Source: a virus
Lineage: Duplodnaviria; Heunggongvirae; Uroviricota; Caudoviricetes
DNA: 64,000 nt
Reading direction: 5' to 3' (one strand)
Virus record (IMG/VR): IMGVR_UViG_3300033073_000554
Span: 1-64,000 of that record
Translations under genes and position numbers: made by a program
The notes under the pieces: model-generated
The model's input: only the letters and a program-made list of their open reading frames with translations
The model's database searches: none
Told to the model about the DNA's origin: nothing
Shown here: positions 1,047 through 58,434 of the stretch, one piece after another
How positions within the stretch are numbered: position 1 is the first letter of the stretch
How the letters are laid out: every line of letters begins with the position of its first letter

Positions 1047-1096
1047 TTTAATTAGTTTTTATATTCATATAACTAAATATATTTCACTTTAGTTCC
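1047..1096 (-). promoter_or_regulatory. conserved promoter/leader element copy 1 (GGAACTAAAGTGAAATATATTTAGTTATATGAATATAAAAACTAATTAAA-ATG)
   Basis: GGAACTA at -51 and TATAAAA at about -17 relative to the ATG; same architecture as four other copies. Confidence 0.55.
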
Positions 1097-1734
1097 GATA
1101 TTATTAATTTATTTTTACCTCACCTCAATTATTTTCAATATTTGTTTCAACTTATACTGTCACTCTTGTATTGTCACTACAACTCCGCCAGTATTTATTA
1201 CTGGCAGTGCAGTTCCAAAACTATAATGTGCGCAATCGACTAATAATTCAATATCGTCTTCATAATCTTTGACACAATAATTATCATCATCAATTTCAAG
1301 TTCATACTCATAAGATACTAGTATTTTAATTTTTCGCATTTTAATTGTTGATTTTAATATTATTCAATATTGATCATCATAGATTATCAAATCACTCTCC
1401 AATTTAAACTTGATAATATGAATAATGGGTGGAAGTCGGAGATCTCGTTCAAATTTAAATAATCCAAATGTAGAACCTCCGATTCCACTCAATTTATTCC
1501 ATAATATTCCATATATAGGTTCCATATTTTAATTGGATTTACCCCAGAACCACCGTCTACCTTTATGCATTCTAAATATAATCCATTTCATTGTCCATCG
1601 TGGCATGATACTACTGAATGTTATTATCATTACTAGATACTCTACAATACCTATGATTGCCATTATTGTGTTACCTAATCTATGTTTAAAATCTAATTTC
1701 TGCATCGATATCAATTTAATGTGAGATAATATTA

Positions 1735-1911
1735 TTATGCGTTAAGATATACTCTAACTTGTAAAAAATCATAATCAAAAGATCTACTATCCACACGATA
1801 ATTACAATCACCAATCACAACCATATCGCCAACACTTGGAATGATGCTATCTTTGAGAATCCACGTCTTTAATAAGACCCCACCAACTTCTATGAATTTA
1901 ATCGTTTTCAT
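1735..1911 (-). CDS. small beta-rich protein (58 aa), possible NfeD-like OB-fold partner of the flotillin
   Basis: hand-translated: MKTIKFIEVGGVLLKTWILKDSIIPSVGDMVVIGDCNYRVDSRSFDYDFLQVRVYLNA; it starts 7 nt after the flotillin stop; the NfeD assignment is speculative. Confidence 0.25.
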   Translation of the reverse strand: MKTIKFIEVGGVLLKTWILKDSIIPSVGDMVVIGDCNYRVDSRSFDYDFLQVRVYLNA

Positions 1912-1917
1912 ATTATC

Positions 1918-3342
1918 TTATTTCTTAATAAGCTTATTGATCAACTCAGTTATTTCATTACCAACTTCAGTTTGATTCAAACCTTCAAGTAACCCATTGA
2001 TAGATGCGGCACCTTTAGTACTGAGTATATCCGAGAATTTATTAAGCCCAGAGTGCACGTCACCACTATTGACTAATAATTTTAAGTCGGCACCATTTAA
2101 TGCAGTTGCCAATGATTGGTACTGTACTTTATTTACCTCACCAGCGATTTCTATTTCTCTGATTTTAATTAAGTAAGATTGGTAATTGTCGTTATCACCG
2201 ATTTCTTGCGCCAACGTTGTTTGTGCAGTTACATTTGCTAATTCCATTTGTTTCTTAGCTTCAGCTTCAGACAACCCTTTAGCTCTAACTACATCGGCTT
2301 GAGCTTCACCCACTGTCTTAATCGCTTCGGCTTCCTTTTTCTTAGCTTCAAGTTGAGCCATTGCTTCAGTTTCAATCTGGTATTTATCAGCTTCCGCTTT
2401 AATCGCAATTTGGCGTTTCTGTTGTTCTGAAATTATGATTGCATTTTCTTTATCAATTTCAGCCTGTTTAATTTGTTTGATTTTAATTACGCCCATATTT
2501 TGCTCCGCCGTTAATTGCTCAGCTTTTGCAATTTCAGATAGTGAAGTCTGTTCGGCTATTCCACGATTTTTAACAGATTCAGCTTGAGCTATACCAATTG
2601 CTTGAAGAGATTTAGCTTTGGCTTCTCCAGCAATTCGCTCAGTTTCTGCCGCTGTTAATGCGACTTCTTTTCTGGCTTCCAATTCCGCTTGTTCAGCTGA
2701 TTTGGTATTTTTAGCAACTTCGGTCCTAGATTCCATGTCAATTGCCGATATACGTTTTGCCATGATCTGGTGTATTACGGTTGACCCAGCAGCATCCCGG
2801 ACATCCATCAACTCAATTGATTTAATGGGTTCAACTCCCCAACTTTTTAAATCTTCCTTCACGGCATTTGTAAACGCTTGCCCAAAAATTGAACGTTCCT
2901 CCATTATTTGTTCGAGCTTCGATTTTGCTAATATCGATCTTACCGCACCTTGGACAACATTATTCAATTGGACTAATAGATCTTCATATGATGCTACCTT
3001 TTCAGCCGCTTTATTAGTATCTGCTATATGAAAAAATGCTTTGACGTCTACTTCAAATGGTACCCGGTCCTTGTCATATGCCGAATATTTCGGTAAATCT
3101 ACACCAAAGTTGGATACTGGTAATTGTCGTACTTCGACTCCCCATTTTGGTAGCCATTTAGGAAACTCATAATATACGTTCGACTCTTTTCCTACTCCAT
3201 ATGATACAGTTGCTTTACCTCGCTGCACAATGTGCACGACGTTAGTTGGAACGATTCTACGTAATGTAAATACGTAAATTGATATACCTACAATTAATAC
3301 AATTGGTAGTACATAGATAAAAATTGGAATTAATTCTTGCAT
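1918..3342 (-). CDS. flotillin-like SPFH/band-7 membrane protein
   Basis: N-terminal TM helix, SPFH-like core, long Ala/Glu/Lys-rich coiled-coil (EQAELEARKEVALTAAETERIAGEAKAK...), 474 aa typical of FloT/YqiK. Confidence 0.75.
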   Translation of the reverse strand: MQELIPIFIYVLPIVLIVGISIYVFTLRRIVPTNVVHIVQRGKATVSYGVGKESNVYYEFPKWLPKWGVEVRQLPVSNFGVDLPKYSAYDKDRVPFEVDVKAFFHIADTNKAAEKVASYEDLLVQLNNVVQGAVRSILAKSKLEQIMEERSIFGQAFTNAVKEDLKSWGVEPIKSIELMDVRDAAGSTVIHQIMAKRISAIDMESRTEVAKNTKSAEQAELEARKEVALTAAETERIAGEAKAKSLQAIGIAQAESVKNRGIAEQTSLSEIAKAEQLTAEQNMGVIKIKQIKQAEIDKENAIIISEQQKRQIAIKAEADKYQIETEAMAQLEAKKKEAEAIKTVGEAQADVVRAKGLSEAEAKKQMELANVTAQTTLAQEIGDNDNYQSYLIKIREIEIAGEVNKVQYQSLATALNGADLKLLVNSGDVHSGLNKFSDILSTKGAASINGLLEGLNQTEVGNEITELINKLIKK

Positions 3343-4432
3343 GTTGTTGTTGTTTTATTAATGATTAAATATTTTACTTTATAGATTATTAAATGCTATT
3401 ACCACTTTATTACTAATTCAAACCCCTCATCCATTCCACCTCCATCAGTCCAGTACTCGACTATAGGGTTGAGTTTATTATCAACTAGATAATCATACAC
3501 ACGTTTTAGATTACCACCCATATACAACCTCTTGTGTTATTAAATCTTCAATTTCAATCATATTAATAATTTTTATGCTTGTCATTAATTGGTAAATATT
3601 GAAGCCATGGGTCGATACTATTTTCGATTTCTCTATGCATATCATATGCCCAATATAATATACTATGATCGTTGAAACTATTATATATCAAATCAGATCT
3701 TTGAATATTTATTAATGAATCATATATTTTTTTGTATACTAAAATCATACTAGTTCCACGTTTATATCTTTTTTAATTATAGATCTAATTAAAATTGACA
3801 TCATACCTAACGGTTGAATAACTTCGACAGTATTATTATTAAGATAAATATCCAAGTTAGCTGGTAAATAAATATAATGTTCGTATATTTTAAATTTTAC
3901 AGACACCATCATGAATACTATTTAGTATTGTGTATTTTACTTTTATACCTATCTTTTAACTCAAGTATTTTAGGCATCAGTATAACACTCATTAATAATA
4001 TAATTAACGCAAACACTAAAGCCACTATTGGTGCTTCCCGATCAATTTTATCCTTTATTTCATCATTTTTCATAATTCTCGCATTATTTGTAAAAATAAA
4101 CTTCGTCTCATAACTGAATGTAACCCAACTGTACGCAGAAAATATAATGTTTCAGTTGATTCTGGACTGTATATTATATATTCCCACTCTAAACTTCCTC
4201 GCAATAAGTTTATTGGCATAATAATATCAACAAGTTTAGGTTCTTCATCCATATTAGTATTCTTTTTATAATTCTTTCAGTATTTGTTCAATTAAACTTC
4301 GCGTAATATCCAAATGAAATCTACCACTTCGTATAGAAGTAACAGTGTTAAATACATCTGAAATATTTACACTGTTGTTCCGCCATCTAGGACCATTGTG
4401 TAATATTTCTGGTATAAACGTGTTAATTCCTT

Positions 4433-4792
4433 TCATATGTAGAATTGCCCAGCTTCTTCAGCCGCACCTTTTACCTTTTCCAACAATCTTATAAATTTTT
4501 CTTGCTCTCCGAAATCTTTTACTGTATATCTACTTGGATTATATATACTAGTGAAATATATTTCCACCACTGTCTGATTATTCCAAATGTTAGCCTTCAA
4601 TTTAGTGAACATTTGATATTTAGTTAGAGTGTTGGTGGATTCAATATATAATACCATATATTTTACATTAGATATAACACACCAACCTAATACTTTACCA
4701 TTCACAAAATCTGAAACTGTAGATACTCTAGCTTGCTTCAGTAAAGACATTTTTAATTTAGTTCGTTTCAATACAATTTCTACAGTTCGCAT
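4433..4792 (-). CDS. hypothetical protein
   Basis: 119-aa ORF, same strand as neighbours. Confidence 0.4.
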   Translation of the reverse strand: MRTVEIVLKRTKLKMSLLKQARVSTVSDFVNGKVLGWCVISNVKYMVLYIESTNTLTKYQMFTKLKANIWNNQTVVEIYFTSIYNPSRYTVKDFGEQEKFIRLLEKVKGAAEEAGQFYI

Positions 4793-4976
4793 ATAAAATT
4801 ATTGTGCAATATAAACCATTTCGATTAGATATAACCACATGAGTATCCCACATGCTATTTCAAACCATCTTGAATAATATGTATATGTTTTAAAAAATAG
4901 TATATGGTACAACACATCTCCCAATATCATTATACTATTGATCAATACATAAACCCAAACTATGAATCGCTTCATA

Positions 4977-5387
4977 TTATCGTATTTTCAAAATTTTAAT
5001 TGCCTCACGTAATTCGTCGGCAGTATTAAATATATTGTGGGGATAAATAAATCGTTCTCTGAGAGCATTGTACAAATTAGATATTTCTATATCCAATTTT
5101 ATTTCTTCAATAGTGTTGAAAAGCTTTAATTTCTTCAAATTATATAGATAATCATACACCTTCAAATCGCAGTTTTTAACCATGTATCGATTCGTTTCTT
5201 TAAATGTTGAGAAACTTTCACCAACTTTATCAATGGTTAACTTTTTTATTTCAATTTGCTTTTCCACATCTTCTGGCATGTGTTTGTAATAGAATTTCTG
5301 CCCAACTTTAACTAGGCTATCCACCTGTTTAGCTGTTTTCATAGCATGTGTTAATCCACTTTTCTTTACTTTATTAGCTACTTTCAT
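4977..5387 (-). CDS. hypothetical protein
   Basis: 136-aa ORF. Confidence 0.45.
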   Translation of the reverse strand: MKVANKVKKSGLTHAMKTAKQVDSLVKVGQKFYYKHMPEDVEKQIEIKKLTIDKVGESFSTFKETNRYMVKNCDLKVYDYLYNLKKLKLFNTIEEIKLDIEISNLYNALRERFIYPHNIFNTADELREAIKILKIR

Positions 5388-5409
5388 AATAATTTTAATA
5401 TATTTTATT

Positions 5410-5458
5410 AAAAAAAAGTGGGTGCGATCTGCTAACCAAAAAACAAATCAACACCCAC
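5410..5458 (-). terminator. putative rho-independent terminator after the 5486..5860 gene
   Basis: minus-strand RNA GUGGGUG-(27-nt loop)-CACCCAC followed by U8; the loop is long. Confidence 0.4.
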
Positions 5459-5485
5459 TCCAGTATTTCAACTCAATTAAATATC

Positions 5486-5860
5486 CTAATCTAACACTTT
5501 TTCGAAGGTTTTTGAATATGGATTGAACTGATTCTGGATCCATGCTTCATACACTCCAGTCTCGAAATCAATCGGTGGATGATCTGCAATGGTACCTTGG
5601 TCTCTCTTTGCATATCCTTTGAAATTGCTTTCGTGAATATGGTGTAGAGTTGCACCATCTGTTCCTACATTGTAGTATACGTGCCCATCTTCCCCCTGAA
5701 ACATTTCGACTTCATTACCGCACATCACATGCATGTGACCAGATTTTTCACCAAGTGCTATTGGCTTGTGCTCGATTTTTTTCGCGTTAGCTGGGATAGA
5801 GCTTACCCTTTTAAGTTGAACATCACCTTGATGTCCTCTCTGTCTAAGAATTTTTTTCAT
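5486..5860 (-). CDS. hypothetical protein
   Basis: 124-aa ORF, His-rich. Confidence 0.45.
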   Translation of the reverse strand: MKKILRQRGHQGDVQLKRVSSIPANAKKIEHKPIALGEKSGHMHVMCGNEVEMFQGEDGHVYYNVGTDGATLHHIHESNFKGYAKRDQGTIADHPPIDFETGVYEAWIQNQFNPYSKTFEKVLD

Positions 5861-5899
5861 ATGAAAACTTTTTTATAAATAATTAATTAATTTAAATTT

Positions 5900-6838
5900 T
5901 CACGCTCGTGCGTCGTATAAATATTCTTCATCTACGAAGAACCCATCTATACTCTTCTTTGCTTCAATGGCATCCGTGTGGTGAGGTTCACACCCGGCTA
6001 AGTAAATGGTTCCAGTTGAAGGACACACTTGTTTAACCCATGCGAACGGTTGATTATCAATTTCTTCAAAGGTATCATCAGTTTTCAACAATTCAATTTG
6101 TTCAATTGAACCATCTGCATGTACAACACTCTTTGAATCGACAACTTTCGCTTGCAATAAGTTCATAACACCCTCTTGACCAAGAACCTCATACATTCCA
6201 CCTTTGATGTCCATGTTTTTTTCAGAGATGAATTGTTCTCTAGTGATTGGCTCTTCGAATATCTCTTTCGGCATCTCTCTACCGTGAACAAAATATTGTC
6301 TGTATCCGTCCTCCCAAGCTACAGCTGGACCAGCTGAGTTGTGTAATCTGTTCTGATCATCAAAATGGATTTCGGTCGGTTTGTCGCAGATGATTATGAC
6401 TGCATCATATGCGATTGCATCATAAATACCAGCTGGTAGATATTTTTTCTCGTATTCGTCGAAAACTTCAGGAGTTTTAATTCCAGACTGTTTTAATAAG
6501 TCGTAGAATGCGATCCATCCGTAGTCGCTGATGTTGGCGTTGTTCAAGAACGCAAAGTCGTTTAATTTAGCGTTCGGGTCAATTTTCTTTCTCAACTCCC
6601 ATGACTTATAGACAGCTGCGTATGGGGAGATTGTAAACACTACCTCTGGCATTGGTAGATTGATCAGTTTGTAAAGCATCTCTACAGCCACCATTGCTTT
6701 TTCTTTGTCTAGGCGAATAGCTGTGATGTTCTTGATCCACTTTTCTCTGATAGCTGGGATCTTCAGTCTATCTTCGTCTGTTAATTGAAGTTTTTCTTCT
6801 TTAGGTTCAGCTCCTTTTGTTTTTGTTGATTTTGACAT
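5900..6838 (-). CDS. hypothetical protein (312 aa)
   Basis: long uninterrupted ORF; no family recognised. Confidence 0.55.
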   Translation of the reverse strand: MSKSTKTKGAEPKEEKLQLTDEDRLKIPAIREKWIKNITAIRLDKEKAMVAVEMLYKLINLPMPEVVFTISPYAAVYKSWELRKKIDPNAKLNDFAFLNNANISDYGWIAFYDLLKQSGIKTPEVFDEYEKKYLPAGIYDAIAYDAVIIICDKPTEIHFDDQNRLHNSAGPAVAWEDGYRQYFVHGREMPKEIFEEPITREQFISEKNMDIKGGMYEVLGQEGVMNLLQAKVVDSKSVVHADGSIEQIELLKTDDTFEEIDNQPFAWVKQVCPSTGTIYLAGCEPHHTDAIEAKKSIDGFFVDEEYLYDARA

Positions 6839-6927
6839 AAAAAATATTTAATTGTTGTTTTTAAAAATTACTAATTTATTGATGATGCAGATGTATAACA
6901 AAGTTTTTGATATTTTATTATCGTTAA

Positions 6928-7287: not shown

Positions 7288-7449
7288 TTCATTATATTTT
7301 TTAAATATTTACTAATTTTATTCCTAAGTGTACTCATATCTCGTATGAGGTGCAGTTCTTGCTGCCCGAGTTCTTCAGAATTATTACTTAACAATTCCTT
7401 CGTATCATCTATCGTGGCAATCAATTTATATAGATGAAAGATATTTCCC

Positions 7450-8106: not shown

Positions 8107-8108
8107 GA

Positions 8109-8381
8109 TTATACCTTTTTACACAGTACTATTTGGACTGTGGCTGGATTAATATGTGTACCAACTATATATATGTCAGCGTTGTCTAACATGAATGCAT
8201 AATCATTCAATTGTTTTTTGAATTGATCATTGAACGATGATCTTATGCTATTACTAGCATAATTTCTCTCCGTTCCAGCTATTGGCTCACGTAATTCTTC
8301 GATATCCAACCCAGTTGCCGGGCAATATGCGATATCCTCCTTTTGGACGATTAATTTGTCAAATACTTGTTCTAAGTTCAT
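8109..8381 (-). CDS. hypothetical protein (90 aa, early-class)
   Basis: preceded by conserved promoter element copy A. Confidence 0.5.
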   Translation of the reverse strand: MNLEQVFDKLIVQKEDIAYCPATGLDIEELREPIAGTERNYASNSIRSSFNDQFKKQLNDYAFMLDNADIYIVGTHINPATVQIVLCKKV

Positions 8382-8430: not shown

Positions 8431-8591
8431 ACAACACGGAATTATTTTTCCACTAAATATGCTATCGAATTTCGTCGTTCTGGGTATTTAGCAAAATACC
8501 GCCCACTATCTCCTTTACCAATCAAGTCTAACCTTGAAAAGTAATAATTTCCACTGGGTGAGCATGCGATATAATTACCGTTTTTACTAGT

Positions 8592-8681
8592 TCACGTTGT
8601 CACAACGTTACCAGCTTCATCTGTTACAGTGTAAGTGAACGACCCATTCTTGTTTTGCACTTTTGTTAGTATATTTGCCAT
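8592..8681 (-). pseudogene. 29-codon ORF behind duplicated promoter copy B; possible gene remnant or leader peptide
   Basis: ATG sits in a context identical to copy A (52 nt, 49 identical); the ORF stops after 29 codons and another frame continues ~23 codons; no ORF of 60 aa or more lies in 8382..8741. Confidence 0.3.
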
Positions 8682-8730: not shown

Positions 8731-8741
8731 AAACTTTGAAA

Positions 8742-9071
8742 TTATTTTTTACAAACTATAACACTATCATTTTCAGATAAAATGTATTTCACTTCAATTA
8801 TATTATTATCTTGTTTATTTAGAATTATAACGGATCTCCGCGTCTTACCACTAGGATACATAATTGAATTAATTTGGTTATTTAAAATCGCAACGTTTAT
8901 ACCACTACCACGTCCAGTCGACACCCAATATACTTTAAGTCCCTTCAATTCTTCTGGTAAATCTGGTTCTTTCCCAGTTAATTCTTGGGATGATACTCCA
9001 GCATTACTACATGAAATTAATATGGCGCACATTAACACAAGAGTGATGACTTTAATTGTAATTTTTTTCAT
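8742..9071 (-). CDS. small lipoprotein
   Basis: signal peptide followed by lipobox-like LISCS (MKKITIKVITLVLMCAILISCSNAG). Confidence 0.5.
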   Translation of the reverse strand: MKKITIKVITLVLMCAILISCSNAGVSSQELTGKEPDLPEELKGLKVYWVSTGRGSGINVAILNNQINSIMYPSGKTRRSVIILNKQDNNIIEVKYILSENDSVIVCKK

Positions 9072-9088
9072 TTTATTTATTGATAATT

Positions 9089-9390: not shown

Positions 9391-10212
9391 TTAAATTGTA
9401 TCGATATACTCATCTGGCATATCTGAATTTATTTTGTCCAAACACGCATCTTTAACATCTGCTAGCATATCTCTAACCGTTGGATAATTAGGCTTTAGAT
9501 ATGTTGAAATATCTACATTATCATTACCAATAGTATTCCATGTCGCATTTAAATGCTTTAGCATACTATTAGCCAACACTATTGCTACTTCCTTTATGGC
9601 CACTCCCTTGGATACTAAATGGTCAAAATCTGATAATTTCAATCTGCCACCCTTTGATGGTACATTAAACATAGTAGCTAGATCGGACCAAGTAGATGCA
9701 TTAGCAGTTTCAGTAACATTTTTCTTCGTCACTCCCATTTTTTCGGTGACAATTTTATTCTCTGATTTAGTCGGAGTAATTGGTACCTTAGTATATCTCC
9801 AAAACCAATCTGTTACACCATGCGGTTGAGATTTAAAATTTACATTGACTGCTTGTTCTGGTGTTAATCTCTCGAATGTTCCCAAATCTTCCGTCGACCC
9901 ATCTTTGTAAACATTATGGGCGCGAACACTTCCAATTGGTTTAACCAAGTAGGCATCTTGGTCAATATCTGGATCATTTATAAGTCCTAATAAAATTTTT
10001 GATAGATCTGATCTAGATATTATTACAAATGATTCTTCTGGAGTTCCCTCCCACCAACCGTGCGACGCTTCTATTTTACCTAAGAATTTAATTTTATGTA
10101 GTAATTTCTCGTTTCTAGCCTCATTCACATCTTTAGATAATTCAGTTTTATAGGCTGATATTATATAAAGGTTGACGCTTGGGTCGCTATTAAATTGCTC
10201 AATTGCAGTCAT
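9391..10212 (-). CDS. hypothetical protein (273 aa, early-class)
   Basis: preceded by conserved promoter element copy 3. Confidence 0.55.
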   Translation of the reverse strand: MTAIEQFNSDPSVNLYIISAYKTELSKDVNEARNEKLLHKIKFLGKIEASHGWWEGTPEESFVIISRSDLSKILLGLINDPDIDQDAYLVKPIGSVRAHNVYKDGSTEDLGTFERLTPEQAVNVNFKSQPHGVTDWFWRYTKVPITPTKSENKIVTEKMGVTKKNVTETANASTWSDLATMFNVPSKGGRLKLSDFDHLVSKGVAIKEVAIVLANSMLKHLNATWNTIGNDNVDISTYLKPNYPTVRDMLADVKDACLDKINSDMPDEYIDTI

Positions 10213-17367: not shown

Positions 17368-18105
17368 TTAAATTACTGGTAATAAATAAGTTGATATAGT
17401 ATCATTTGCATATGTAAATTTTAACTTCAATAGTATATTACTATAGATTGATATATCCACTATATTTGATTTTTTATTTAAATCGAATACTTTCTGAATT
17501 ATATCTAAATCTAGATTGACGTTGTAGTTTGAATTTATAGTATGGTTTATGATAACTGGTATTTTAATTTCTCCGAAACTTTCAGATTCTTCAGTTTGGG
17601 AAATTTTAAAATGTAATTCAGACGTTTCGATAGACGTATTTATATTTATTTTACTGCATCCACTCATTGACTTAGTAGTTGCAAGTATAGATTGGATTTT
17701 CTTTGAATCCATTACCATATCTATTCTATCACCGTCTATCAATGCAGCTTTTGGTCTAAATATTTTAGCGCATTGTGATTCTTGATCGATATAACAAGAT
17801 GCTTTTAGTGATGTATCACTATCTTCAATCTTTAATATTGGTCCGAAATTATTTTCAAGTGTTGTATTTTCTCCACAGTTATTTAATATTTGTAATATTT
17901 CAGATACCTGTGGGATACAAATTTTACCTTCAAGTTTTATAGATGGTTCATACTTAGATTCGATCACACCTGTAATCCTAGCTTTAGATTCTATAAATTC
18001 GAGAATTACAGTATTGTCGGAACTCTGATGTATAAAATTTACTTTATCTATATCAGAAGTAACTTGACATAACTTAAATAGCCCATGTAATTTTGTTACT
18101 TTCAT
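17368..18105 (-). CDS. hypothetical protein (245 aa)
   Basis: ORF. Confidence 0.45.
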   Translation of the reverse strand: MKVTKLHGLFKLCQVTSDIDKVNFIHQSSDNTVILEFIESKARITGVIESKYEPSIKLEGKICIPQVSEILQILNNCGENTTLENNFGPILKIEDSDTSLKASCYIDQESQCAKIFRPKAALIDGDRIDMVMDSKKIQSILATTKSMSGCSKININTSIETSELHFKISQTEESESFGEIKIPVIINHTINSNYNVNLDLDIIQKVFDLNKKSNIVDISIYSNILLKLKFTYANDTISTYLLPVI

Positions 18106-22330: not shown

Positions 22331-22591
22331 TTAGTTTCCATTTTGTAGGTATTTTTTAACTTCTGACTCATAATCAAAATCATGATTATTGATTAGTTTT
22401 TTATCGTTTAAATAAACTAAAAAATTAACTAACTGTCCACTTCTACTACTTACATCTGGTTTGTGTAATTTAGTTTGTGCAACCGAAATAACAATTTCGA
22501 GTAATTCATGCTGCCACTGAGTTAGTGCCTTATCATCATAATATAATGCGTCTATAATATTTTGCGCTTTTTGTAATTCTCTATTATCCAT
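22331..22591 (-). CDS. hypothetical protein
   Basis: 86-aa ORF. Confidence 0.35.
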   Translation of the reverse strand: MDNRELQKAQNIIDALYYDDKALTQWQHELLEIVISVAQTKLHKPDVSSRSGQLVNFLVYLNDKKLINNHDFDYESEVKKYLQNGN

Positions 22592-22599: not shown

Positions 22600-24060
22600 T
22601 TATATCGAATGATCATATACATTTGGTTTCCCATTTCCATTATTTTCAGTTATCACGAATCCACCAGTAGATGTATAACCAAGGGTTTCTGAATAAAAGT
22701 TCCCCGTAAACAATGCGGGTAATACAATTTTCCTATAATTCGCTTCATCATCTGAAACTGCTACATATGTGTTGAACATCAATGGTCTATTAACTTTAGT
22801 TTTATGGGTATGTCTACTATGAATATGTCCTGATAGCCACAATGTAAAGACATTCGTAGATCCGAATAAATTCACCATTTTACCAATATCTTTCTTGTCC
22901 ATTTTGAAATGACCATGTGTTAATAGATAACATATACCATCGATCGTCGGTCTTAAACAATAAGTGTGGTAATTAAATTTGATACTTTGCATTTTCAGAC
23001 TCAATATATGAGACAATAATTCTGCCGCACCTCCTTCATTGTCAATATCAGCTTGTGGAGTCAATCTATCATGGTTCCCAGATATAACATTAACTTCGGC
23101 TAAATTGTTTATTTTATTTAAAAAATCTCCGATCATTGTTGCGGCAAGTATGATGACCTTTGCACCATACATGCCTTTACCCAATGATTTAAATGTATTT
23201 AAATGGTTTAACCCAGATATTGATTCAAAATAATCCCCTAGCATATTCACGTGCACTTGCGAATACCCATAACTATTGATAACGGTCGCAATTCGATCTA
23301 AATATCCAACCAAAATATCAGTATTAAAATCTGGAGTCAATATTAAGTCGCTAACATCTGCCCCAATGTGAAAGTCTGCTAAATTTAATACTCCAACGCC
23401 TCTTGTTGGATTATGATTTACTGGGTTGTGTCTAAAATTTTCTATTGAAATTAATACGTCGTCAATTAGTTTCTGGTATTCAATCTCTGGATTCTTTTCA
23501 ATCGGTTTAAATTTAATCCAGCATCCATAATTTGTTATAGTAACTGGAACTAATACTTTAGTATCAACACTATCGATATTTTGAATTTCTTCAACTTTCA
23601 TTGTTACATCCCACGAATTGAACCCATGAGATTCTACTCTCCACACATTTAAATCGACCTTCGAAAATTCTAGCGCATCTTCAAGTGATTGTATAGATTT
23701 TGTAGTTTTACCTTTAAATATGGCTTCAGTATCTGTTACATTAAATTCCCTTTGTCCACCAGCTGGAGTGGATTGATTTAAGTCAATTGCCAAATGTGTC
23801 GGTGCTCCACTTCTAGTAACCGTATTATCAGTTTCATCGGTATTGGATGAAATGTGCATTCTACCAATATACTGATCTACGGTGTATCCAGTTTTTGAAA
23901 AATTTTTCCACAATTTTCTAACTCTTTGACCAACTACTGAAGATGGTTCGACTCCGTATAATTTTTCCAATTCTACCCATGACCTGTCTGATTTACCATT
24001 GGTAAGCATCTCATTTAGAAATTCTCTTACACCACGTTTAGGATTATTTATTTTTCTCAT
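22600..24060 (-). CDS. calcineurin-like metallophosphoesterase with ~200-aa N-terminal extension
   Basis: motifs LADFHIGADV (D-x-H), MLGDYFES (GD-x-x-D/E), GNHDRL (GNHD), LTHGHF and SGHIHSRH (GH-x-H). Confidence 0.7.
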   Translation of the reverse strand: MRKINNPKRGVREFLNEMLTNGKSDRSWVELEKLYGVEPSSVVGQRVRKLWKNFSKTGYTVDQYIGRMHISSNTDETDNTVTRSGAPTHLAIDLNQSTPAGGQREFNVTDTEAIFKGKTTKSIQSLEDALEFSKVDLNVWRVESHGFNSWDVTMKVEEIQNIDSVDTKVLVPVTITNYGCWIKFKPIEKNPEIEYQKLIDDVLISIENFRHNPVNHNPTRGVGVLNLADFHIGADVSDLILTPDFNTDILVGYLDRIATVINSYGYSQVHVNMLGDYFESISGLNHLNTFKSLGKGMYGAKVIILAATMIGDFLNKINNLAEVNVISGNHDRLTPQADIDNEGGAAELLSHILSLKMQSIKFNYHTYCLRPTIDGICYLLTHGHFKMDKKDIGKMVNLFGSTNVFTLWLSGHIHSRHTHKTKVNRPLMFNTYVAVSDDEANYRKIVLPALFTGNFYSETLGYTSTGGFVITENNGNGKPNVYDHSI

Positions 24061-29407: not shown

Positions 29408-29830
29408 CTATTTTGTGTTATCTAATAATATTAATGGCATTCCTATATCTTCACTATCTGTGATATCGATATTCAGTAAAAATCTGTCTCGATATATATC
29501 CCACTGTATTTGATACTCATGATCCATAGTATTATTATTCGATCGTATTATTATTGCATTTAACGCATTTATTGTATAAAGTGTGTTCGTATATGATTTT
29601 CTATGTATTTTTATAGTGTTATCGTGTACATATTTATTTGATGAATCTACGTAATATATACATATTACTCCATCTCGTGTGTATAAATTTTTATATATGT
29701 CAATGTTTCCAATAGTTTCTGGTATTTTTTCATGTAATAAATCGGTTGTATTTTTTAAGTTTTTAATATTTACAAATGTGCATAATATAGTCTTACGCGG
29801 CTGAGTTATTTTTAAGTTTTCCGACAACAC
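29408..29830 (-). CDS. hypothetical protein
   Basis: 140-aa ORF overlapping the polymerase gene's 3' end by 38 nt. Confidence 0.4.
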   Translation of the reverse strand: MLSENLKITQPRKTILCTFVNIKNLKNTTDLLHEKIPETIGNIDIYKNLYTRDGVICIYYVDSSNKYVHDNTIKIHRKSYTNTLYTINALNAIIIRSNNNTMDHEYQIQWDIYRDRFLLNIDITDSEDIGMPLILLDNTK

Positions 29831-31172
29831 TGTTCATATCTCCGTATTTTTTTCCGAATTTTATTTTAACTGGATATCCAGATTGTTCTAATATTTTCTG
29901 GATTTCCACCAATATATTCGAATCATCTGTATTATCGTAATCTATTAAAAATGCATCATATGTATACAAGATTAACTTACTACTATACGGATATAAATAT
30001 GTCTGTATTTTTTGCAACGATTTTATGTTCTGTTCGGTCTCGGCAGCTTGCTGAAGATATGAGAATAATTTACCCTTTGTCATCTCTACCAATTTAGATG
30101 ATTCGAATTTTCTACCACCTAATGTAGTCGCGTACCCATCTCTTTCAAAATTACTCCACATCTCATTTTTATATATTTCAACTTGCTTGAAGAAATCTAT
30201 ATACGAGTAAGTTGTTTCTACCTCACCATATAATTGTTTAAATGTTATCCTCTTTGACTGTTCATATTGCTCTGTATTCAATTTATCTATTCCAAAATAA
30301 TATTTTCCAAGATGCTCGTGCACATTTTCATCTAAATCAAACTTATATCCGATCAATGATGCTATTAAACGTACATGATACCCATCATAATCGTATTCAA
30401 ATAATGTTCCATCTTGCCCAAATCTGGATATTATTATATTTCGATAGTTATCATCTTTTCTCATAGAATTAAATGATATTCGATCATATTTAAATGATGG
30501 TCTACCAGTCAATGTTTTAATATTTGAAATAGGATGAATTATTCGGTCGTTTAGTTTAACACCATATTTTTCTTCAGTTAATTCTGGGTCTAAGCATATT
30601 CCAACCGACTCTATATTTGAACAAACTGATTGGTATAATTGAATATACAAATCACTGAATTCTGTCGGCGTATATTTATCAATATATTTAAGTGAGCTAT
30701 TAATAATTTCCTTACACACTTGCATATGATGACTGATTGGAATTATATTATTAAAATTTGGATATGCGTTATACCACTCAGCATATAAATTATCTACATT
30801 AACTAATTGGGTAGATATTGGTTCAAGATTAATTGAATAATTAAACCATAAATATATATCCAGATCTATAACATAAGACCTATGAATACAATTAGATATA
30901 TATGACTTATTATAGATATACTTAATACTATCCGAATTATTTAAAATAGAATATAAAACATTTATATCAAATTCATCTAAATCGAAATGATTTAATCCAA
31001 TCATACACGATTCATTTATATCTATAAAATGAATATACATGCATGATAATGTAGATGATTTATTGGACCAATGTATATATCTATCAGATAATATTGGAAT
31101 TATTATAATCGATGATGACGCATTAAGATTTTGTTCTAAATATTCAGGGGTTATCTCACTTGTCTTAATCAT
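29793..31172 (-). CDS. family-A DNA polymerase catalytic domain (minimal, no recognisable 3'-5' exonuclease)
   Basis: TLTGRPSFKYDRISFNSM (compare TGRLSSxDPNLQNIP), motif A-like LFEYDYDGYHVRLIA (DYSQIELR), motif B-like RITFKQLYGE (RxxxKxxxYG), motif C-like LYTYDAFLIDYD (HDE replaced by YDA); only 459 aa. Confidence 0.55.
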   Translation of the reverse strand: MIKTSEITPEYLEQNLNASSSIIIIPILSDRYIHWSNKSSTLSCMYIHFIDINESCMIGLNHFDLDEFDINVLYSILNNSDSIKYIYNKSYISNCIHRSYVIDLDIYLWFNYSINLEPISTQLVNVDNLYAEWYNAYPNFNNIIPISHHMQVCKEIINSSLKYIDKYTPTEFSDLYIQLYQSVCSNIESVGICLDPELTEEKYGVKLNDRIIHPISNIKTLTGRPSFKYDRISFNSMRKDDNYRNIIISRFGQDGTLFEYDYDGYHVRLIASLIGYKFDLDENVHEHLGKYYFGIDKLNTEQYEQSKRITFKQLYGEVETTYSYIDFFKQVEIYKNEMWSNFERDGYATTLGGRKFESSKLVEMTKGKLFSYLQQAAETEQNIKSLQKIQTYLYPYSSKLILYTYDAFLIDYDNTDDSNILVEIQKILEQSGYPVKIKFGKKYGDMNSVVGKLKNNSAA

Positions 31173-51006: not shown

Positions 51007-51181
51007 CTACTTCTAAAAAACGCTTATATTTTCAGTTCCATATAATCTCTTTTCAAACAATACTGTCTGCGCTTCAATAAAAATTGGACTACCAGCAGAT
51101 CCAGAAAATGGTAATTCAATGGTAAATGTCGGACCAACGGCTGAACTAGTTACTGCAAATAATATATCATCTAGTGCCATA

Positions 51182-53539: not shown

Positions 53540-54928
53540 TTATTTTTTTACGTTTGTATGTCTGTGAACTGCTCAACAACATCATGACTAATGAAATGAG
53601 CTTCGGAGGTCATAGACTCGCCTAAGGGTAACGCCTCACTCCGTTTTTGTTTAGTGTCCGAATTAGTTCCTAAACCAGACAATATTTTTAAACCTTGGTT
53701 TTCAATGTTTATACTTGCATTTAAATCCCGATCATGTACTGTATTACAACTGGTGCAAATCCATTCTCTATCTTTTAGAGTAAGTTCTTGATTGATGTAA
53801 TTGCATTTTGAACAGGTTTTACTACTTGGAAAAAATCTATCAATCTTTATAACGGTTTTATCATTCCAAATAGATTTATATTCAAGCATATTGTAAAAAG
53901 TACCTAATGCTACATCTGAGAGTGCTTGTGCCAACTTATGATTCTTCATCATATTTTTGACCATTAAAGTTTCAATACAAATTACATCGTGGTTTTTGAT
54001 GATTTCAGTACTGACTTTATGTAAATAGTCGTTTCTAGTATTAGTTACTTTTTCATATATTGTTGCAAGTTTTGATTGTTGTTTTAATCTGGAATTACTT
54101 CCCTTTACTTTTTTAGATAATTGACGCTGATTATATTTTAACTTCTTTAAATTGGTTTTGAGTGGTTTAGTATTTTGATATACCTTACCATCTGAAAGAA
54201 TAGCTAAGTTCTTAATTCCAGTATCAATACCAATACTTGAGTCTGTTTTCTCAAACGGTGTATGTTCAACTTCACACGTAATACTTACATAATATTTACC
54301 AGTTTTAGATTTTGATATTGTTGCAAAGCAGATTTTACCTTCAATTTTCCTATGTAAATTTATATTGATACCTTGTTTAAATTTTGGTATCCATAACTTA
54401 CTATCTTCAATATATATAGATTGTGGTATAGTAAAACTTTGTCTATCATATTTACTTTTAAATATTGGAAATTCAGTTTGTTTTCTGAAAAACTTATTAT
54501 ATGCAGCATCTAAATTTCTAAGTGATGATTGTAAACTTTGTGAATTAATTTCCTTTAACCATATAAATTGCTCATCATTTTTTAAAAAAGTAAGATCCAC
54601 GGCATTATCATAATAATTAAGTGTTGTTTTATATTCAAGATATGGATGTTTCCTAACATTCAAATAACGGTTATATACGAATCTACATGCTCCAAAATGT
54701 TTTGATATGAGTACCATCTGTTCATTGGTAGGATCAAGTTTAAACTTATATGATTTATGAATTACCTTCATCTATTAGTAAATAGGCAAATTCTTTGTGA
54801 AAACGCACATATTTTAACAATACATAGGGTTTTTGCGAATATTTACAAACTCCAGTTAAGATACTTGTAAAAAACTTCACTATTACTGTTCATATACATT
54901 CATTCTGCCTTGAATTAATAAATAAATT
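53500..54928 (-). mobile_element. solo-TnpB IS605-like element (no tnpA); ends not delimited
   Basis: tnpB flanked by a 157-bp upstream gap (candidate LE); only 8 nt separate it from the downstream gene (RE/omega-RNA must overlap the gene boundary). Confidence 0.5.
53548..54771 (-). CDS. tnpB: TnpB (IS200/IS605-family OrfB RNA-guided nuclease)
   Basis: OrfB_IS605-type N-terminus MKVIHKSYKFKLDPTNEQ, RuvC-like core, C-terminal zinc finger CSKCNYINQ...CTSCNTVHDRDLNASINI; 407 aa. Confidence 0.85.
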   Translation of the reverse strand: MKVIHKSYKFKLDPTNEQMVLISKHFGACRFVYNRYLNVRKHPYLEYKTTLNYYDNAVDLTFLKNDEQFIWLKEINSQSLQSSLRNLDAAYNKFFRKQTEFPIFKSKYDRQSFTIPQSIYIEDSKLWIPKFKQGININLHRKIEGKICFATISKSKTGKYYVSITCEVEHTPFEKTDSSIGIDTGIKNLAILSDGKVYQNTKPLKTNLKKLKYNQRQLSKKVKGSNSRLKQQSKLATIYEKVTNTRNDYLHKVSTEIIKNHDVICIETLMVKNMMKNHKLAQALSDVALGTFYNMLEYKSIWNDKTVIKIDRFFPSSKTCSKCNYINQELTLKDREWICTSCNTVHDRDLNASINIENQGLKILSGLGTNSDTKQKRSEALPLGESMTSEAHFISHDVVEQFTDIQT

Positions 54929-57229
54929 TTAAGTTATTATATCTATAAATAGTATTATATCTGTTATGTATGTAGATGACCCACTTACATAAAATTCCAA
55001 TAAATCATCTCTGTATAATGTTGTAGTCCACCCAGATAATGTCGTATCAATCGATCCAGTTTGATTTACTAAACTTACATTTCCAAGTGTAGTTCCATTT
55101 CTACGTATATTTATATCAATACTTCCAGTTATGGTTGATATTGTTCGCGTTTTTATAATTGTAGAATTGGAATTAATATGCCGATATCCCTTAGACCCGG
55201 CTGTGATATACGAGTCTTCAGTTTGTATTCTTGTACCAATTGTTTGAACTGAACTACCACCCGGGGCATAGGATGCACTCAATGCATATGAAGCTGATAC
55301 TATATTAGTTAACCCACTACCGTTACCAACAAATGATCCTGAAAATGACCCAGAATATACAGTCTTAGTTTCCAGCGTAGTTACACGATTAGAAAATGAA
55401 GATGATGCATTATTGAATGATCCAGAAATATCCGACGCAATTTGAAATGAAGATGATAGTATATTTGGTGGTAATGTTGTAGTAATACCAGTTAAACCAG
55501 ATCCATCACCTCGGAATGACCCTGTAAATGATCCTGTAAATGGTGCAGTTATTGTAAAGAATTGTAATGAACTGCTTATAATATTCGATGGCACATTGGT
55601 GATACCAGTGTAAGATATCTGCGCAGAGCTTGATACAACATTGGGTGGAATTATATTTAATAAACCAGATCCATCTCCTTTGAAAGATCCAGTAAATGAT
55701 CCTGTAAATGCATCGGTGATAGTTTTAAATTGTAATGAAGAAGATACTATTCCAGATGGAATAGAACTTATTCCCGAATATGTTATCTGAGAAGAGCTTG
55801 ATACTATATTTGATGGTACATTAGTGATGCCACTATAAGATATTTGAGCCGATGATGATACAATATTAGGTGGTAATGTTGTAGTAATACCAGTTAATCC
55901 ACTTCCATCTCCTTTGAAAGACCCAGTGAATGATCCAGTAAATGGAGATGTTATATTTGAAAATTGTAATGAGCTACTTACAATATTTGGTGGAATTACC
56001 GCTGTTATTCCAGTAAGCCCACTACCATTACCAACAAATGATCCTGAAAATGATCCACTATATATTACTTTGGCTTCAATATTTGTTACACGTGTGGAAA
56101 ATGATGAAGATGCACTATTGAATGACCCTGAAATATCCGACGCAATTTGAAATGAAGATGATATTAAATTAGAAGGTGCACCAGTAATTCCCGAATATGT
56201 TATCTGAGAAGAGCTTGATACTATATTTGATGGTAATGTTGCGGTTATACCCGTCAAACCAGATCCATCACCTTTGAAAGATCCAGTGAATGGAGATGTT
56301 ATATTTGAAAATTGTAATGAAGAAGATACTATTCCAGATGGAATAGAACTTATTCCTGAATATGTTATTTGGGTAGACGATGATACTATATTTGATGGTA
56401 ATGTCGCAGTAACACCAAATAGTCCAAATCCATCTCCTGTAAACGATCCTGTAAATGATCCTGTAAATGGTGCAGTTATTGTAAAGAATTGTAATGAAGA
56501 AGATACTACATTCGATGGTAAAGTTGCGCTACCACCAGTTGACCCAGTACTAGTTGGTAATATACTTCCAACTGTAGCTGATGCATACCCACTTACTGGT
56601 ACTGGAAAATATACAATCGATTGTGATGTAGATGCAGCAAATATCTTCTCTGGAATAATTACTTCATCTTCAGTATTCCAAACGGTTATTATCGGATATT
56701 TGTAATTTAAATTGTGATTGAAACTCCAAGTAGTAGCCAACGAGGGTTGTGAAAATGTGGCATAATATTGACTTGACACGTAGGATGCGGATATTGCCCA
56801 AGATGACGTGATGTTATATGTTGCACCATCTATCAGTGCCCCGGGAGCATAGGACGCACTCAATGCGTATGAAGCTGATACTATATCAGTTAATCCAGAT
56901 CCATTTCCAACAAATGATCCACTGAAAGATCCCGTAAATGCGCCATTTGTAATGATACCACTGGTGCCCGGTCTACCTTGCGGTCCAGACTCGATGATTT
57001 TAACGACTTTAATTTCCGATTCATCGATGATCTTAATAATCGGTGGCACATTATCCGAAATAATACTCGGATTATCGCTAAAAACGCCAATATGATCAAC
57101 AGCCTCTGCATTTTCAACTACTCGTACAACGCGAACTTCTGAATCATCAATGACTCGGATTGATTGTGGCGCATCATATGATACGTCAATGGGATCATCG
57201 CTTATTATATTGATTCGTTCAATTGCCAC
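54929..57229 (-). CDS. repeat-rich tail fibre protein (766 aa)
   Basis: two N-terminal ~40-aa repeats (IRVIDDSEVRVVRVVE / IKIIDESEIKVVKIIE), a short collagen-like GPQGRPGTSG, 8 copies of F(T/S)GSF.GSF.G[DN]GSGLT and ~12 copies of LP(S/P)NIVSSS.Q(I/F).Y(S/T)GI; the N- and C-terminal GSFSGSFVGNGSGLT-IVSASYALSASYAPG segments are duplicates. Confidence 0.65.
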   Translation of the reverse strand: MAIERINIISDDPIDVSYDAPQSIRVIDDSEVRVVRVVENAEAVDHIGVFSDNPSIISDNVPPIIKIIDESEIKVVKIIESGPQGRPGTSGIITNGAFTGSFSGSFVGNGSGLTDIVSASYALSASYAPGALIDGATYNITSSWAISASYVSSQYYATFSQPSLATTWSFNHNLNYKYPIITVWNTEDEVIIPEKIFAASTSQSIVYFPVPVSGYASATVGSILPTSTGSTGGSATLPSNVVSSSLQFFTITAPFTGSFTGSFTGDGFGLFGVTATLPSNIVSSSTQITYSGISSIPSGIVSSSLQFSNITSPFTGSFKGDGSGLTGITATLPSNIVSSSSQITYSGITGAPSNLISSSFQIASDISGSFNSASSSFSTRVTNIEAKVIYSGSFSGSFVGNGSGLTGITAVIPPNIVSSSLQFSNITSPFTGSFTGSFKGDGSGLTGITTTLPPNIVSSSAQISYSGITNVPSNIVSSSSQITYSGISSIPSGIVSSSLQFKTITDAFTGSFTGSFKGDGSGLLNIIPPNVVSSSAQISYTGITNVPSNIISSSLQFFTITAPFTGSFTGSFRGDGSGLTGITTTLPPNILSSSFQIASDISGSFNNASSSFSNRVTTLETKTVYSGSFSGSFVGNGSGLTNIVSASYALSASYAPGGSSVQTIGTRIQTEDSYITAGSKGYRHINSNSTIIKTRTISTITGSIDINIRRNGTTLGNVSLVNQTGSIDTTLSGWTTTLYRDDLLEFYVSGSSTYITDIILFIDIIT

Positions 57230-57235
57230 GGTGTC

Positions 57236-57637
57236 TTACCTCGTGGTATTTTTATTCAGTTTAATTCTGCCTTCTATTATTCTACGGACGTATTCAGTTT
57301 GACCAGATCCAGAATATATTTCAATATCAAAATACGCCTGATCAAATGATACCAACGATGATGAATATGCACTAATTGTCAACCCAATTGATCCAGATGT
57401 TATTGGTAAAACTACAGATCCCGAAACTGGAGTCATAGTTAACCCAGTTCCATCACTTGTAGGTGAGGTAGAAATTCTAAAGTAAGCTGTATTTGAGGTT
57501 GCTTCTGGTCTAACATGCATCCGAGCATTGTAGTCAGTCAAATCAATAGGATTACCATTCGCATCAGTATATTCTAATCTGCGTTTAAATGTTGCTCCCT
57601 GATCGATGATCCATTGTACTCTATTACTTGCTGCCAT
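57236..57637 (-). CDS. hypothetical protein (133 aa)
   Basis: ORF tightly coupled between PhoH and the fibre gene. Confidence 0.45.
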   Translation of the reverse strand: MAASNRVQWIIDQGATFKRRLEYTDANGNPIDLTDYNARMHVRPEATSNTAYFRISTSPTSDGTGLTMTPVSGSVVLPITSGSIGLTISAYSSSLVSFDQAYFDIEIYSGSGQTEYVRRIIEGRIKLNKNTTR

Positions 57638-57643
57638 TAATGA

Positions 57644-58327
57644 TTAACCCTCTGTTCTATATAGTATATTTAATACATCTTCGACTGCTGGATGACGATG
57701 ATTCTCAAATAATTCTACCACACTTACATGTGTTGATTCTCTTAATTGATCTATCCACTGTGTAGCAGATGTAAGTTTATTTTTTAAATCAATTTGATTT
57801 TTATCACCACAAAATATCATGATACTATCTTTACCAAGTCTACCAAGTGCCATCGCTAATTGTTCTTTAGTCAAATTCTGAAATTCATCGACGATGCACA
57901 CTGCATTATTGAATGTGCGCCCCCTGAAAAATGTCAATGGCGCAATTTCAATTACACCTTCAGATTCCAACTTTTTAATTTGGTCTGGATGACTATATGC
58001 CTGACGCATGGTATCCTTTATTGGGACTAGCCATGGATCAAGCTTTTCTTCCAGAGTCCCGGGCAAAAACCCGTTATCCTCAGTTGAAACCGTTGGTCTC
58101 GTGATTACAATCTTGGATACTTCCTTTTTAAACAGCTTATCCAATGCCACTGCTACAGCCAACTGAGTTTTACCAGTTCCAGCCTTCCCTAATATGAACG
58201 TGTACGCATGTTTCAGAATCTGCTCTTTAGCTAATCCCTGTTCTCCATTTAAATGTATATCGAACTGTACATTGCGCCCCACTTTTTTCACTTGTGGTAT
58301 ATTTTTATCCACCATACTCCCCATCAC
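57644..58327 (-). CDS. phoH: PhoH-family ATPase
   Basis: Walker A GKAGTGKTQLAVA, PhoH signature ITRPTVSTEDNGFLPGTLEEKLDPW, CIVDEFQNLT (Walker B). Confidence 0.85.
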   Translation of the reverse strand: MMGSMVDKNIPQVKKVGRNVQFDIHLNGEQGLAKEQILKHAYTFILGKAGTGKTQLAVAVALDKLFKKEVSKIVITRPTVSTEDNGFLPGTLEEKLDPWLVPIKDTMRQAYSHPDQIKKLESEGVIEIAPLTFFRGRTFNNAVCIVDEFQNLTKEQLAMALGRLGKDSIMIFCGDKNQIDLKNKLTSATQWIDQLRESTHVSVVELFENHRHPAVEDVLNILYRTEG

Positions 58328-58384
58328 ATTTGATTCGATAATAAATAGGAAAATTTAGGTTTAAACGATTTATTACGATAAGAT

Positions 58385-58434
58385 GGAACTAATCTGAAAT
58401 AAATACAGTTATACTAGTATAAAAACTAATTAAA
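58385..58434 (+). promoter_or_regulatory. conserved promoter/leader element copy 5 (plus strand)
   Basis: GGAACTAATCTGAAATAAATACAGTTATACTAGTATAAAAACTAATTAAA-ATG with GGAACTA at -51. Confidence 0.55.

Follow-up and report, generated by a model that had tools for sequence, protein, structure and literature searches.

What is the function of a short intergenic element that recurs in front of small genes in a phage genome, and which sigma factor would read it? We addressed this question in the IMG/VR virus record IMGVR_UViG_3300033073_000554 (Caudoviricetes), of which positions 1 to 64,000 were analysed; this whole stretch of 64,000 nucleotides is called the window below. A preliminary description of the window had noted five copies of a promoter-like element and had compared their geometry with promoters of extracytoplasmic function (ECF) sigma factors. 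Our analysis suggests that the element is probably a class-specific promoter cassette read by an ECF-type sigma factor, either of the host or encoded by the phage. The functional core would pair the -35 box GGAACT with the -10 box nGTT(ATA) across a rigid spacer of 16 nt (once 17 nt). The copies in the window are as follows, with their scores on the weight matrix described below.

1047..1123, minus strand: copy 1, with GTGAGGT at 1123-1117, an A-tract/TAA, GGAACT at 1096-1091, N16, AGTT at 1074-1071, TATAAAA at 1063-1057, a leader and the ATG of 510..1046; 40.4 bits
8382..8449, minus strand: copy 2, with AAAAATAA, which includes the stop codon of a 79-codon gene, GGAACT at 8430-8425, N16, AGTT, TATAAAA and the ATG of 8109..8381; 46.5 bits
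8682..8750, minus strand: copy 3, with AAAAAATAA, which includes the stop codon of 8742..9071, GGAACT at 8730-8725, N16, AGTT, TATAAAA and the ATG at 8681; 46.9 bits
10213..10288, minus strand: copy 4, with GTGAGGT and a TAA stop within the final codons of the gene for the SNF2 helicase, GGAACT at 10261-10256, N16, TGTT, TATAAAA and the ATG of 9391..10212; 34.2 bits
58385..58434, plus strand: copy 5, with GGAACT, N16, AGTT, TATAAAA and the ATG of 58435..58914; 45.9 bits
58950..58985, plus strand: truncated sixth copy, GTGAGGT-N20-GGAACTAAT without the downstream half, followed by unrelated sequence
22672..22703, minus strand: possible weak extra member, GGAACT-N17-GGTTATAC in the 3' end of 22600..24060, 112 nt ahead of 22331..22591, possibly a chance match

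The five full copies stand where the preliminary description had placed them, each before the gene assigned to it; the first base of GGAAC is at 1096, 8430, 8730 and 10261 in the four minus-strand copies and at 58385 in the plus-strand copy. Every copy lies in an intergenic gap, is oriented toward the next gene and ends at its ATG, so the view of a directional, gene-proximal, promoter-like element common to small accessory genes holds. The distance from the first G of GGAAC to the A of ATG is 49-50 nt in all five. On a weight matrix of 41 columns, which was derived from these same five copies, they scored 34-47 bits, and the best other site on either strand (128 kb) scored 11.4 bits. The preliminary description had raised the possibility that the same sequence appears at random inside coding regions at comparable frequency; no comparable copy was found inside coding sequence. 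A loose regular expression, GGAAC.{20,32}TATAAA, returned the five copies and one intragenic chance match. The shorter pattern GGAAC-N18-19-GTT occurred 10 times in the window, compared with 2.5 times in shuffled sequences, and five of the 10 are the elements.

The copies are not equally alike. Copies 2 and 3 are near-identical, and Logan short-read assemblies break within the repeat that they form. Copy 4 is divergent, with CTGTTGTAC and with TATAAAA displaced by 1, and copy 5 is unchanged in 8 other contigs. The distance from TATAAAA to the ATG is 8, 9, 9, 10 and 10 nt in the five copies, slightly wider than the 8-9 nt first given. The extent of the element, put at about 50 nt before, also needs revision to roughly 70 bases, since it reaches further upstream: in four of the five copies, 11-12 nt before GGAAC, the gene ahead ends with its stop codon or there is at least an A-tract AAAATAA, and in copies 1 and 4 GTGAGGT stands exactly 20 nt before GGAAC.

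To separate the core of the element from its dispensable parts, we compared it with its counterparts in relatives found through protein look-ups. These comprised near-identical strains (L041, L042, L055-L062 and L117-L124) and more diverged relatives, namely L114/L115, in which the SNF2 helicase is 87% identical, and L116, in which it is 53% identical. Ten instances were available: the five window copies, two in L114 and one each in L116, L041 and L123. They were lined up by a script on GGAAC, as MAFFT had misplaced the L116 ortholog. All ten match GGAACT-N16/17-nGT(T/A). GGAACT is invariant (10/10), the gap from GGAAC to the second box is N18 in nine instances and N19 in one, and the box itself reads GTT in nine and GTA in L041.

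The junction between the SNF2 helicase gene and the S-adenosylmethionine (SAM)-lyase gene illustrates what is kept and what is not. In the window it reads GGAACT-ATTTATAACGGTACAC-TGTT-...-ATG (49 nt from GGAAC to ATG), in L114 (L114:5451, N18) GGAACT-ATTTATAATGTATAGT-AGTT-...-ATG (47 nt) and in L116 (L116:9594, N19) GGAACT-ATATATAATATCAATGG-TGTT-ATAAGATCTAAAGAAT-ATG (43 nt, without TATAAAA). GGAACT and GTT were kept at N18/N19, whereas the spacer sequence, TATAAAA and the ATG distance were altered. Likewise, the copy-2 ortholog at L114:7492 retained GGAACT-N16-AGTTATA with six of the 16 spacer bases changed. Two more copies beyond the window obey the same rule, at L041:7547 and at L123:11006, the latter with 58 nt from GGAAC to ATG. 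Overall, the GGAAC-to-ATG distance among relatives ranges from 37 to 58 nt; TATAAAA is present in six of the ten instances, reads TAAAAG in the L114 ortholog of copy 4 and is lost in L116, L041 and L123. Since TATAAAA, the ATG distance and a TAnnTTTG-like stretch are not conserved in relatives, none of them belongs to the predicted core, which consists of the two boxes and their spacing. The invariant ATG spacing and TATAAAA, by which the preliminary description had defined the element, can thus no longer serve that purpose.

The upstream motif GTGAGGT was found at its 20-nt distance in six instances: 1123-1117 and 10288-10282 on the minus strand, 58950-58956 on the plus strand, and in L041, L114 and L123. 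GTGAG(G/A)TAA(A/C)AAT also occurs by itself upstream of other small genes just beyond the window, where 12-18 nt separate it from the ATG. GTGAGGT could be an activator site at about -59, a Shine-Dalgarno (SD)-like GAGGT or a second cassette.

How does this core compare with known ECF promoters? The published promoter consensus of the ECF sigma factors sigmaE and sigmaH is GGAAC-N18-19-GTT, and the table of these promoters includes GGAACT-N16-CGTT and GGAACA-N16-AGTT. The -35 element of E. coli sigmaE is also GGAAC. ECF sigma factors require near-consensus boxes and a rigid spacer. As GGAACT-N16-nGTT is GGAAC-N18-GTT, it equals the sigmaE/sigmaH consensus: a -35 box with GGAAC (AAC core) is followed 18-19 nt on by a -10 GTT at a constant spacer length, the consensus being that of Actinobacteria and E. 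coli rather than Bacteroidota. With this fit, and with boxes and spacing kept in diverged relatives, the earlier suggestion of ECF-type geometry gains support. The likeness to the mycobacterial and corynebacterial sigmaE/sigmaH promoters and to those of E. coli sigmaE (-35 GGAAC, -10 GTC) covers the same -35 pentamer, the GTT of sigmaE/sigmaH and the rigid spacing, with GGAACT-N16 in nine of ten instances and N17 in one; AGTT variants exist among proven ECF promoters. The phage element differs in its Bacteroidota-phage setting, in an extra conserved extended -10 box (GTTATA) and in its AU-rich leader. To our knowledge, no ECF consensus of the form GGAAC-N18-19-GTT has been documented in Bacteroidota.

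From the observed consensus match and conservation we infer that the element is active in transcription and where transcription would start. The architecture of the core would be that of a group-4 (ECF-type) sigma factor, not that of the Bacteroidota housekeeping sigma factor (TTTG / TAnnTTTG). RNA polymerase carrying an ECF-type sigma factor would initiate about 9-10 nt past GTT, within TATAAAA; if C is placed at -31 and GTT at -12 to -10, transcription would begin inside (T)ATAAAA. TATAAAA probably straddles the transcription start, leaving an AU-rich leader of 7-16 nt that has no SD sequence and runs into the ATG. The sigma factor would be either a host ECF sigma factor exploited by the phage or a phage-encoded one whose gene lies outside the window. 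The upstream A-tract/stop codon and the downstream AATAATTAAA leader would turn the whole intergenic gap into a reusable unit, and this unit would travel with inserted accessory genes, like the repeated early-promoter cassettes of related phages.

The phage itself is a distant T4-like myovirus: among the products of the window are a T4-type tail sheath, tail tube and baseplate protein and a gp23-like capsid protein. The capsid protein shares 52-55% identity with its counterparts in Flavobacterium phage immuto and 'Microcystis' phage Mel-JY01, and 36% with the one in Rhodothermus phage RM378. Megablast of both window ends against GenBank phages gave no close DNA relative, and a helicase-based locus search in IMG/VR gave no relative. 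The G+C content is 30-38%. On the basis of the capsid relatives, the canonical housekeeping promoters and the G+C content, the host is very probably a member of the Bacteroidota. These canonical promoters, TTTG-N19-21-TATATTTG, stand before genes 58981-60390 and 29793-31172, and TATATTTG stands before 17368-18105; of the three canonical TATATTTG sites that lie between genes in the window, two have a matching TTG at -33. A hybrid promoter-like site, TTTG-N20-TAAATTAG-TAATTTTTAAAAAC, was seen at 6838-6910 (minus strand), upstream of 5900-6838; it combines a canonical -33 box with a TTAG-type -7 variant as in copies 2 and 3.

Structural parallels come from immuto and Mel-JY01, the closest relatives with sequenced genomes. 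Immuto has about 21 colinear cassettes before small open reading frames (ORFs), of the form AAAAATAA-N11-AAGTTGC-N19-TATATTTAGGTATCAATAATTAAAAC-N9-10-ATG, and Mel-JY01 has many A-tract-CTTGC-N19-TAnnTTTG sites. They share with the element an A-tract/stop codon, a -33 box, a spacer of about 19 nt and a -7 region, and immuto alone also shares a conserved AATAATTAAAA leader. The difference lies in the boxes, which in both phages are the canonical Bacteroidota TTG / TAnnTTTG; GGAAC-N18-GTT was not found upstream of genes in the complete immuto or Mel-JY01 genomes. The Mel-JY01 record (PP395634.1; L051-L054) contains dozens of canonical Bacteroidota promoters and a gene for ribosomal protein S21, which is odd for its cyanobacterial host assignment.

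Other known systems resemble the element in part. In Bacteroides thetaiotaomicron, PM2 (Ryan et al. 2020) is described as a non-canonical, near-palindromic promoter class. Its boxes lie at -30 and -10, TGTT has been reported at about -10, and a link to an ECF sigma factor has been suggested tentatively. Judged by that description, PM2 and the phage element are both near-palindromic (AACT...AGTT or TGTT) and belong to the same phylum, which makes PM2 a lead; it is described as a host stress/stationary-phase class, not a phage class. In the promoter-early stem-loops (PeSLs) of T4-like phages (Arbiol 2010; Comeau 2014), an early promoter of the sigma70 type is paired with a stem-loop terminator. 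Like the element, they are short repeated intergenic regulatory cassettes before small accessory genes in plastic T4-type regions, with insertions and deletions between relatives, and the element indeed stands at the boundaries of such accessory-gene insertions or deletions in the window and in L114 as compared with L116. However, the element carries ECF-type boxes, and a terminator scan around copies 1-4 found no stem-loop or terminator beside them, so it is not a PeSL in the strict sense. Finally, the promoter classes of phiEco32 gp36 and of SPO1 gp28/gp34 and the T4 MotA-box middle promoters are likewise class-specific, have a non-housekeeping consensus and define a temporal gene set. The sequence of our element is unrelated to these phage-sigma classes (phiEco32, AATGTA at -11.5), and no phage sigma factor or activator was identified in the window.

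Several points weigh against the ECF-type promoter. Among about 55 ORFs of the window, no sigma-like protein or domain was found with PHROGs and/or Pfam, the window being about 64 kb of a probably 150-kb genome; therefore, the sigma factor would have to be the host's or encoded in the unseen part of the genome. The composite motif was never found in multiple copies within a genome, only as single chance matches, in scans of one genome per bacterial species, IMG/VR and JGI metagenomes, which required the non-core TATAAAA and in two of four cases also GGAACTAAT and AGTTATA. Because these scans found no multi-copy genome, no host regulon was identified. In addition, the promoter is predicted from the sequence of an uncultivated phage; the cited consensus derives from Actinobacteria and E. 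coli, not from Bacteroidota; recent duplication explains part of the likeness within copies 2/3 and 1/5; and the L041 variant has GTA, not GTT.

Established promoter types were tried and rejected. For the Bacteroidota housekeeping -7 box TAnnTTTG, whose near-invariant positions T-12, A-11, T-8, T-7, T-6 and G-5 were defined in Flavobacterium johnsoniae, the best register agreed at 5/6 positions in copies 2 and 3, 4/6 in copy 5, 3/6 in copy 1 and 2/6 in copy 4, and did worse in the orthologs. At the place of the -33 TTTG, 19-21 nt before the -7 box, stands GGAAC instead; TTTG occurs, by overlap, in copies 3 and 4 only, 24 nt away. A scan for the sigma70 pattern TTGACA-N16-18-TATAAT stayed at background (86 found, 70.6 +/- 9 expected), and the elements were not among its strong matches. 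The sigma-54 pattern TGGCAC-N5-TTGC failed by eye on the missing -12 GC. A T4-type late promoter was rejected as TATAAAA is not kept in relatives and another motif stands before the structural genes.

Four other explanations had to be weighed against the ECF-type promoter. A housekeeping-sigma promoter could have had its -33 box replaced by a phage-activator site, GGAACTAAT, with TATATTAG as a weak -7 box, in a sigma appropriation like that of T4 MotA/AsiA. The colinearity with the immuto cassette speaks for this: AAAATAA stands 11 nt before the -33 position, GGAAC takes the place of GTTGC, and TATATTAG occupies the position of immuto TATATTTAG and is followed by AATAATTAAA. The agreement of copies 2 and 3 at five of the six near-invariant -7 positions fits as well. 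Nevertheless, the -7-like box reaches only 2-4 of 6 in copies 1, 4 and 5 and in the L114, L116 and L123 orthologs, whereas GTT stands at a constant 18-19 nt after GGAAC in every instance that has it, and no activator was identified; we consider this explanation unlikely. It is quite improbable that the element is instead an operator, in which an inverted repeat AACT-N16-AGTT is bound by a dimeric repressor or regulator and gates an overlapping AT-rich promoter such as TATAAAA. AACT and AGTT are complementary in four of the five window copies, AAC and GTT in all, and TATAAAA is similar to the T4 late -10 element TATAAATA. But the symmetry extends over just 3-4 bp, the half-sites lie 20 bp apart instead of about 10, and the flanks are asymmetric, with the invariant GG on one side only and ATA after the other. 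Moreover, the L116 and L123 copies have no TATAAAA, and structural genes use CTAT[AT]TATA instead.

The element could instead be mainly a scar of recombination or mobility, an intergenic cassette copied with inserted accessory genes in PeSL-like shuffling and no distinct regulatory class. In favour of this, a small gene lies between the near-identical copies 2 and 3; the 90-aa gene ortholog of L116 has no element before it, whereas the window and L114 carry inserted genes together with the element; and the truncated copy lies at a junction used by different homing endonucleases. The PeSLs of T4-like phages act likewise. Such copying would explain the spread of the element, but not that GGAACT and the GTT spacing outlast the divergence of the spacer. 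No stem-loop or terminator lies beside the copies, and the idea is compatible with a promoter rather than an alternative to it; on its own we regard it as very improbable. The terminator scan stayed at background and gave none beside copies 1-4 in the scanned stretch of 1-12.5 kb, and no GC-rich hairpin was visible in the 40 nt upstream of any copy. Least probable of all would be a leader acting at the RNA level within a polycistronic transcript, as a translational operator, processing site or ribosome-loading sequence. The 3' third, (A/C)TAATTAAA(T/A)-ATG, is conserved up to the start codon and resembles AATAATTAAAA of the immuto leaders, and translation in Bacteroidota initiates on A-rich leaders without SD sequences. 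Yet the parts best conserved among orthologs, GGAACT and GTT, are those farthest from the ATG, at an ATG distance that varies from 37 to 58 nt, and inspection by eye, with no folding tool, revealed no conserved hairpin.

The element coexists with other promoter types in the same lineage. The motif CTAT[AT]TATA lies 4-40 nt before structural genes (50400, 48870, 46628, 42088, 41283 and 40279, minus strand), with 12 matches compared with 5.6 in shuffled sequences, and recurs in the 53%-identity relative L116 (2044, 4822 and 14055). As a candidate late promoter it recalls T4 TATAAATA, and it overlaps the GGAAC-element box of copy 4 (GGAACTATTTATAA) and of its orthologs. The lineage thus appears to have three promoter types: a few canonical housekeeping promoters, CTAT[AT]TATA before structural genes, and the GGAAC class. 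By its genomic niche, the GGAAC class is the counterpart of the immuto early cassettes. With canonical host sigmaA promoters also present in the window, it need not be immediate-early; its timing could be middle if a phage sigma factor reads it, and possibly immediate if a host stress sigma factor does.

The preliminary description had also treated the missing SD sequence as a mark of the class. This does not discriminate: the host phylum generally lacks SD sequences, and the genes in 1-31.8 kb have SD-like sequences at the background rate. SD-like 4-mers at -18 to -4 were found in 10 of 31 genes in 31.8-64 kb, the structural half, versus 5 of 48 in 1-31.8 kb, against a background of 11%. A phage gene for ribosomal protein S21 lies just past the window end (L055:7997-8254). 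These 4-mers, together with the S21 gene, may point to late genes being translated with the help of SD sequences in a host otherwise poor in them.

If the ECF-type promoter is real, what would it serve? Overall, the element would be both a promoter class of an alternative sigma factor and a repeated regulatory cassette of the phage. We tentatively raise the possibility that the phage ties its anti-defence and takeover genes to a host stress ECF-type sigma factor switched on by infection, so that they fire immediately and with no phage-made factor, leaving housekeeping promoters to other genes. If true, the phage would use the envelope or oxidative stress alarm of the host as an early switch, in a phylum with almost uncharted alternative-sigma promoters. 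Promoter classes of Bacteroidota phages are almost unknown, and the targets of the many ECF sigma factors of the phylum are largely unmapped; a compact, footprint-conserved cassette with exact ECF geometry is a probe for the responsible sigma factor, be it host or phage. The cassette would also mark a co-regulated set of accessory genes, including a SAM-lyase-like anti-restriction candidate. Relatives retain the same intergenic scaffold yet exchange housekeeping boxes for alternative-sigma boxes.

The genes behind the five copies are the following.

510..1046, minus strand: gene behind copy 1, 178 aa, no match in PHROGs, Pfam or PADLOC
8109..8381, minus strand: gene behind copy 2, 90 aa, no match in PHROGs, Pfam or PADLOC
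8442..8681, minus strand: 79-codon gene behind copy 3, interrupted by an in-frame TGA at 8592-8594 that is CGA (Arg) in strain L120
9391..10212, minus strand: gene behind copy 4, whose 273-aa product carries an S-adenosylmethionine-lyase domain at its N-terminus (PF23780, 29.8 bits, cutoff 28)
58435..58914, plus strand: gene behind copy 5 and the only plus-strand gene, whose 159-aa product has a zinc-ribbon-like N-terminus and then helices

One of these genes is SAM-lyase-like, in agreement with the proposal that they are anti-defence candidates; the 178-aa and 90-aa products had no matches. The SAM-lyase domain was also called in the L114 and L116 orthologs. This family includes the T3 SAM lyase, an anti-restriction protein, and by its domain the protein is likely an anti-restriction enzyme. 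It has 273 aa here, compared with 470-471 aa in L114:5498-6910 and L116:9637-11052; the middle of the protein is missing here. The 29-codon ORF that had been reported at 8681 is the front of the 79-codon gene 8442..8681, of which this genome carries a nonsense allele (CGA->TGA) and L120 an intact one. Within this gene lies a small hairpin, ACGTTG-TGA-CAACGT, whose loop is the TGA of codons 25-26 (GTT-GTG-ACA); the nonsense TGA is just 3' of it.

The AlphaFold model of the 159-aa product (predicted local distance difference test score, pLDDT, 86) shows a zinc-ribbon-like hairpin and helices, with no fold match in PDB or BFVD. A homolog of this protein (56% identical) is encoded in an unrelated siphovirus, by an isolated plus-strand gene among structural genes that is preceded by a canonical TTTG-N19-TAGCTTTG promoter. 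This isolated position and canonical promoter argue that the copy-5 gene is a mobile accessory gene. The colinearity of the immuto and Mel-JY01 cassettes with the element and the canonical promoter of the homolog argue that the place of the element, in front of the copy-5 gene too, is a promoter position. On another phage contig, which carries a 62%-identical homolog (L070:1-870), a different repeated string, TTTAAAAACTTACAAAAA, stands directly before three successive ATGs.

The cassette adjoins strain-specific gene content. In L116, the ortholog of the 90-aa gene directly follows the SAM-lyase-like gene and lacks the element, whereas the window and L114 carry additional, inserted genes, with a separate element before the 90-aa gene. 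The truncated copy adjoins the 3' end of the 469-aa homing endonuclease gene 58981-60390 (minus strand), which has its own canonical promoter and a hairpin. In strain L058 (L058:4233-5100), a different endonuclease, of the GIY-YIG type, occupies exactly that junction, after GGAACTAATTAAATG. The junction looks like a homing hot spot.

Two further observations concern the genome at large. An IS200/IS605-type TnpB-like gene (OrfB_IS605, Cas12f1-like TNB domains) lies among the structural genes at 53548-54771 (minus strand) and is also present in L057. In L041 (L041:8284-8500), a non-coding stretch of 700 nt that lies about 3-4 kb past position 1 of the window contains at least four copies of iteron-like repeats, CATTGGTAGG...GGTTAAAT, together with two divergent GGAAC-N18/19-GTT matches and a canonical TATATTTG site; this stretch could be an origin or a genome end.

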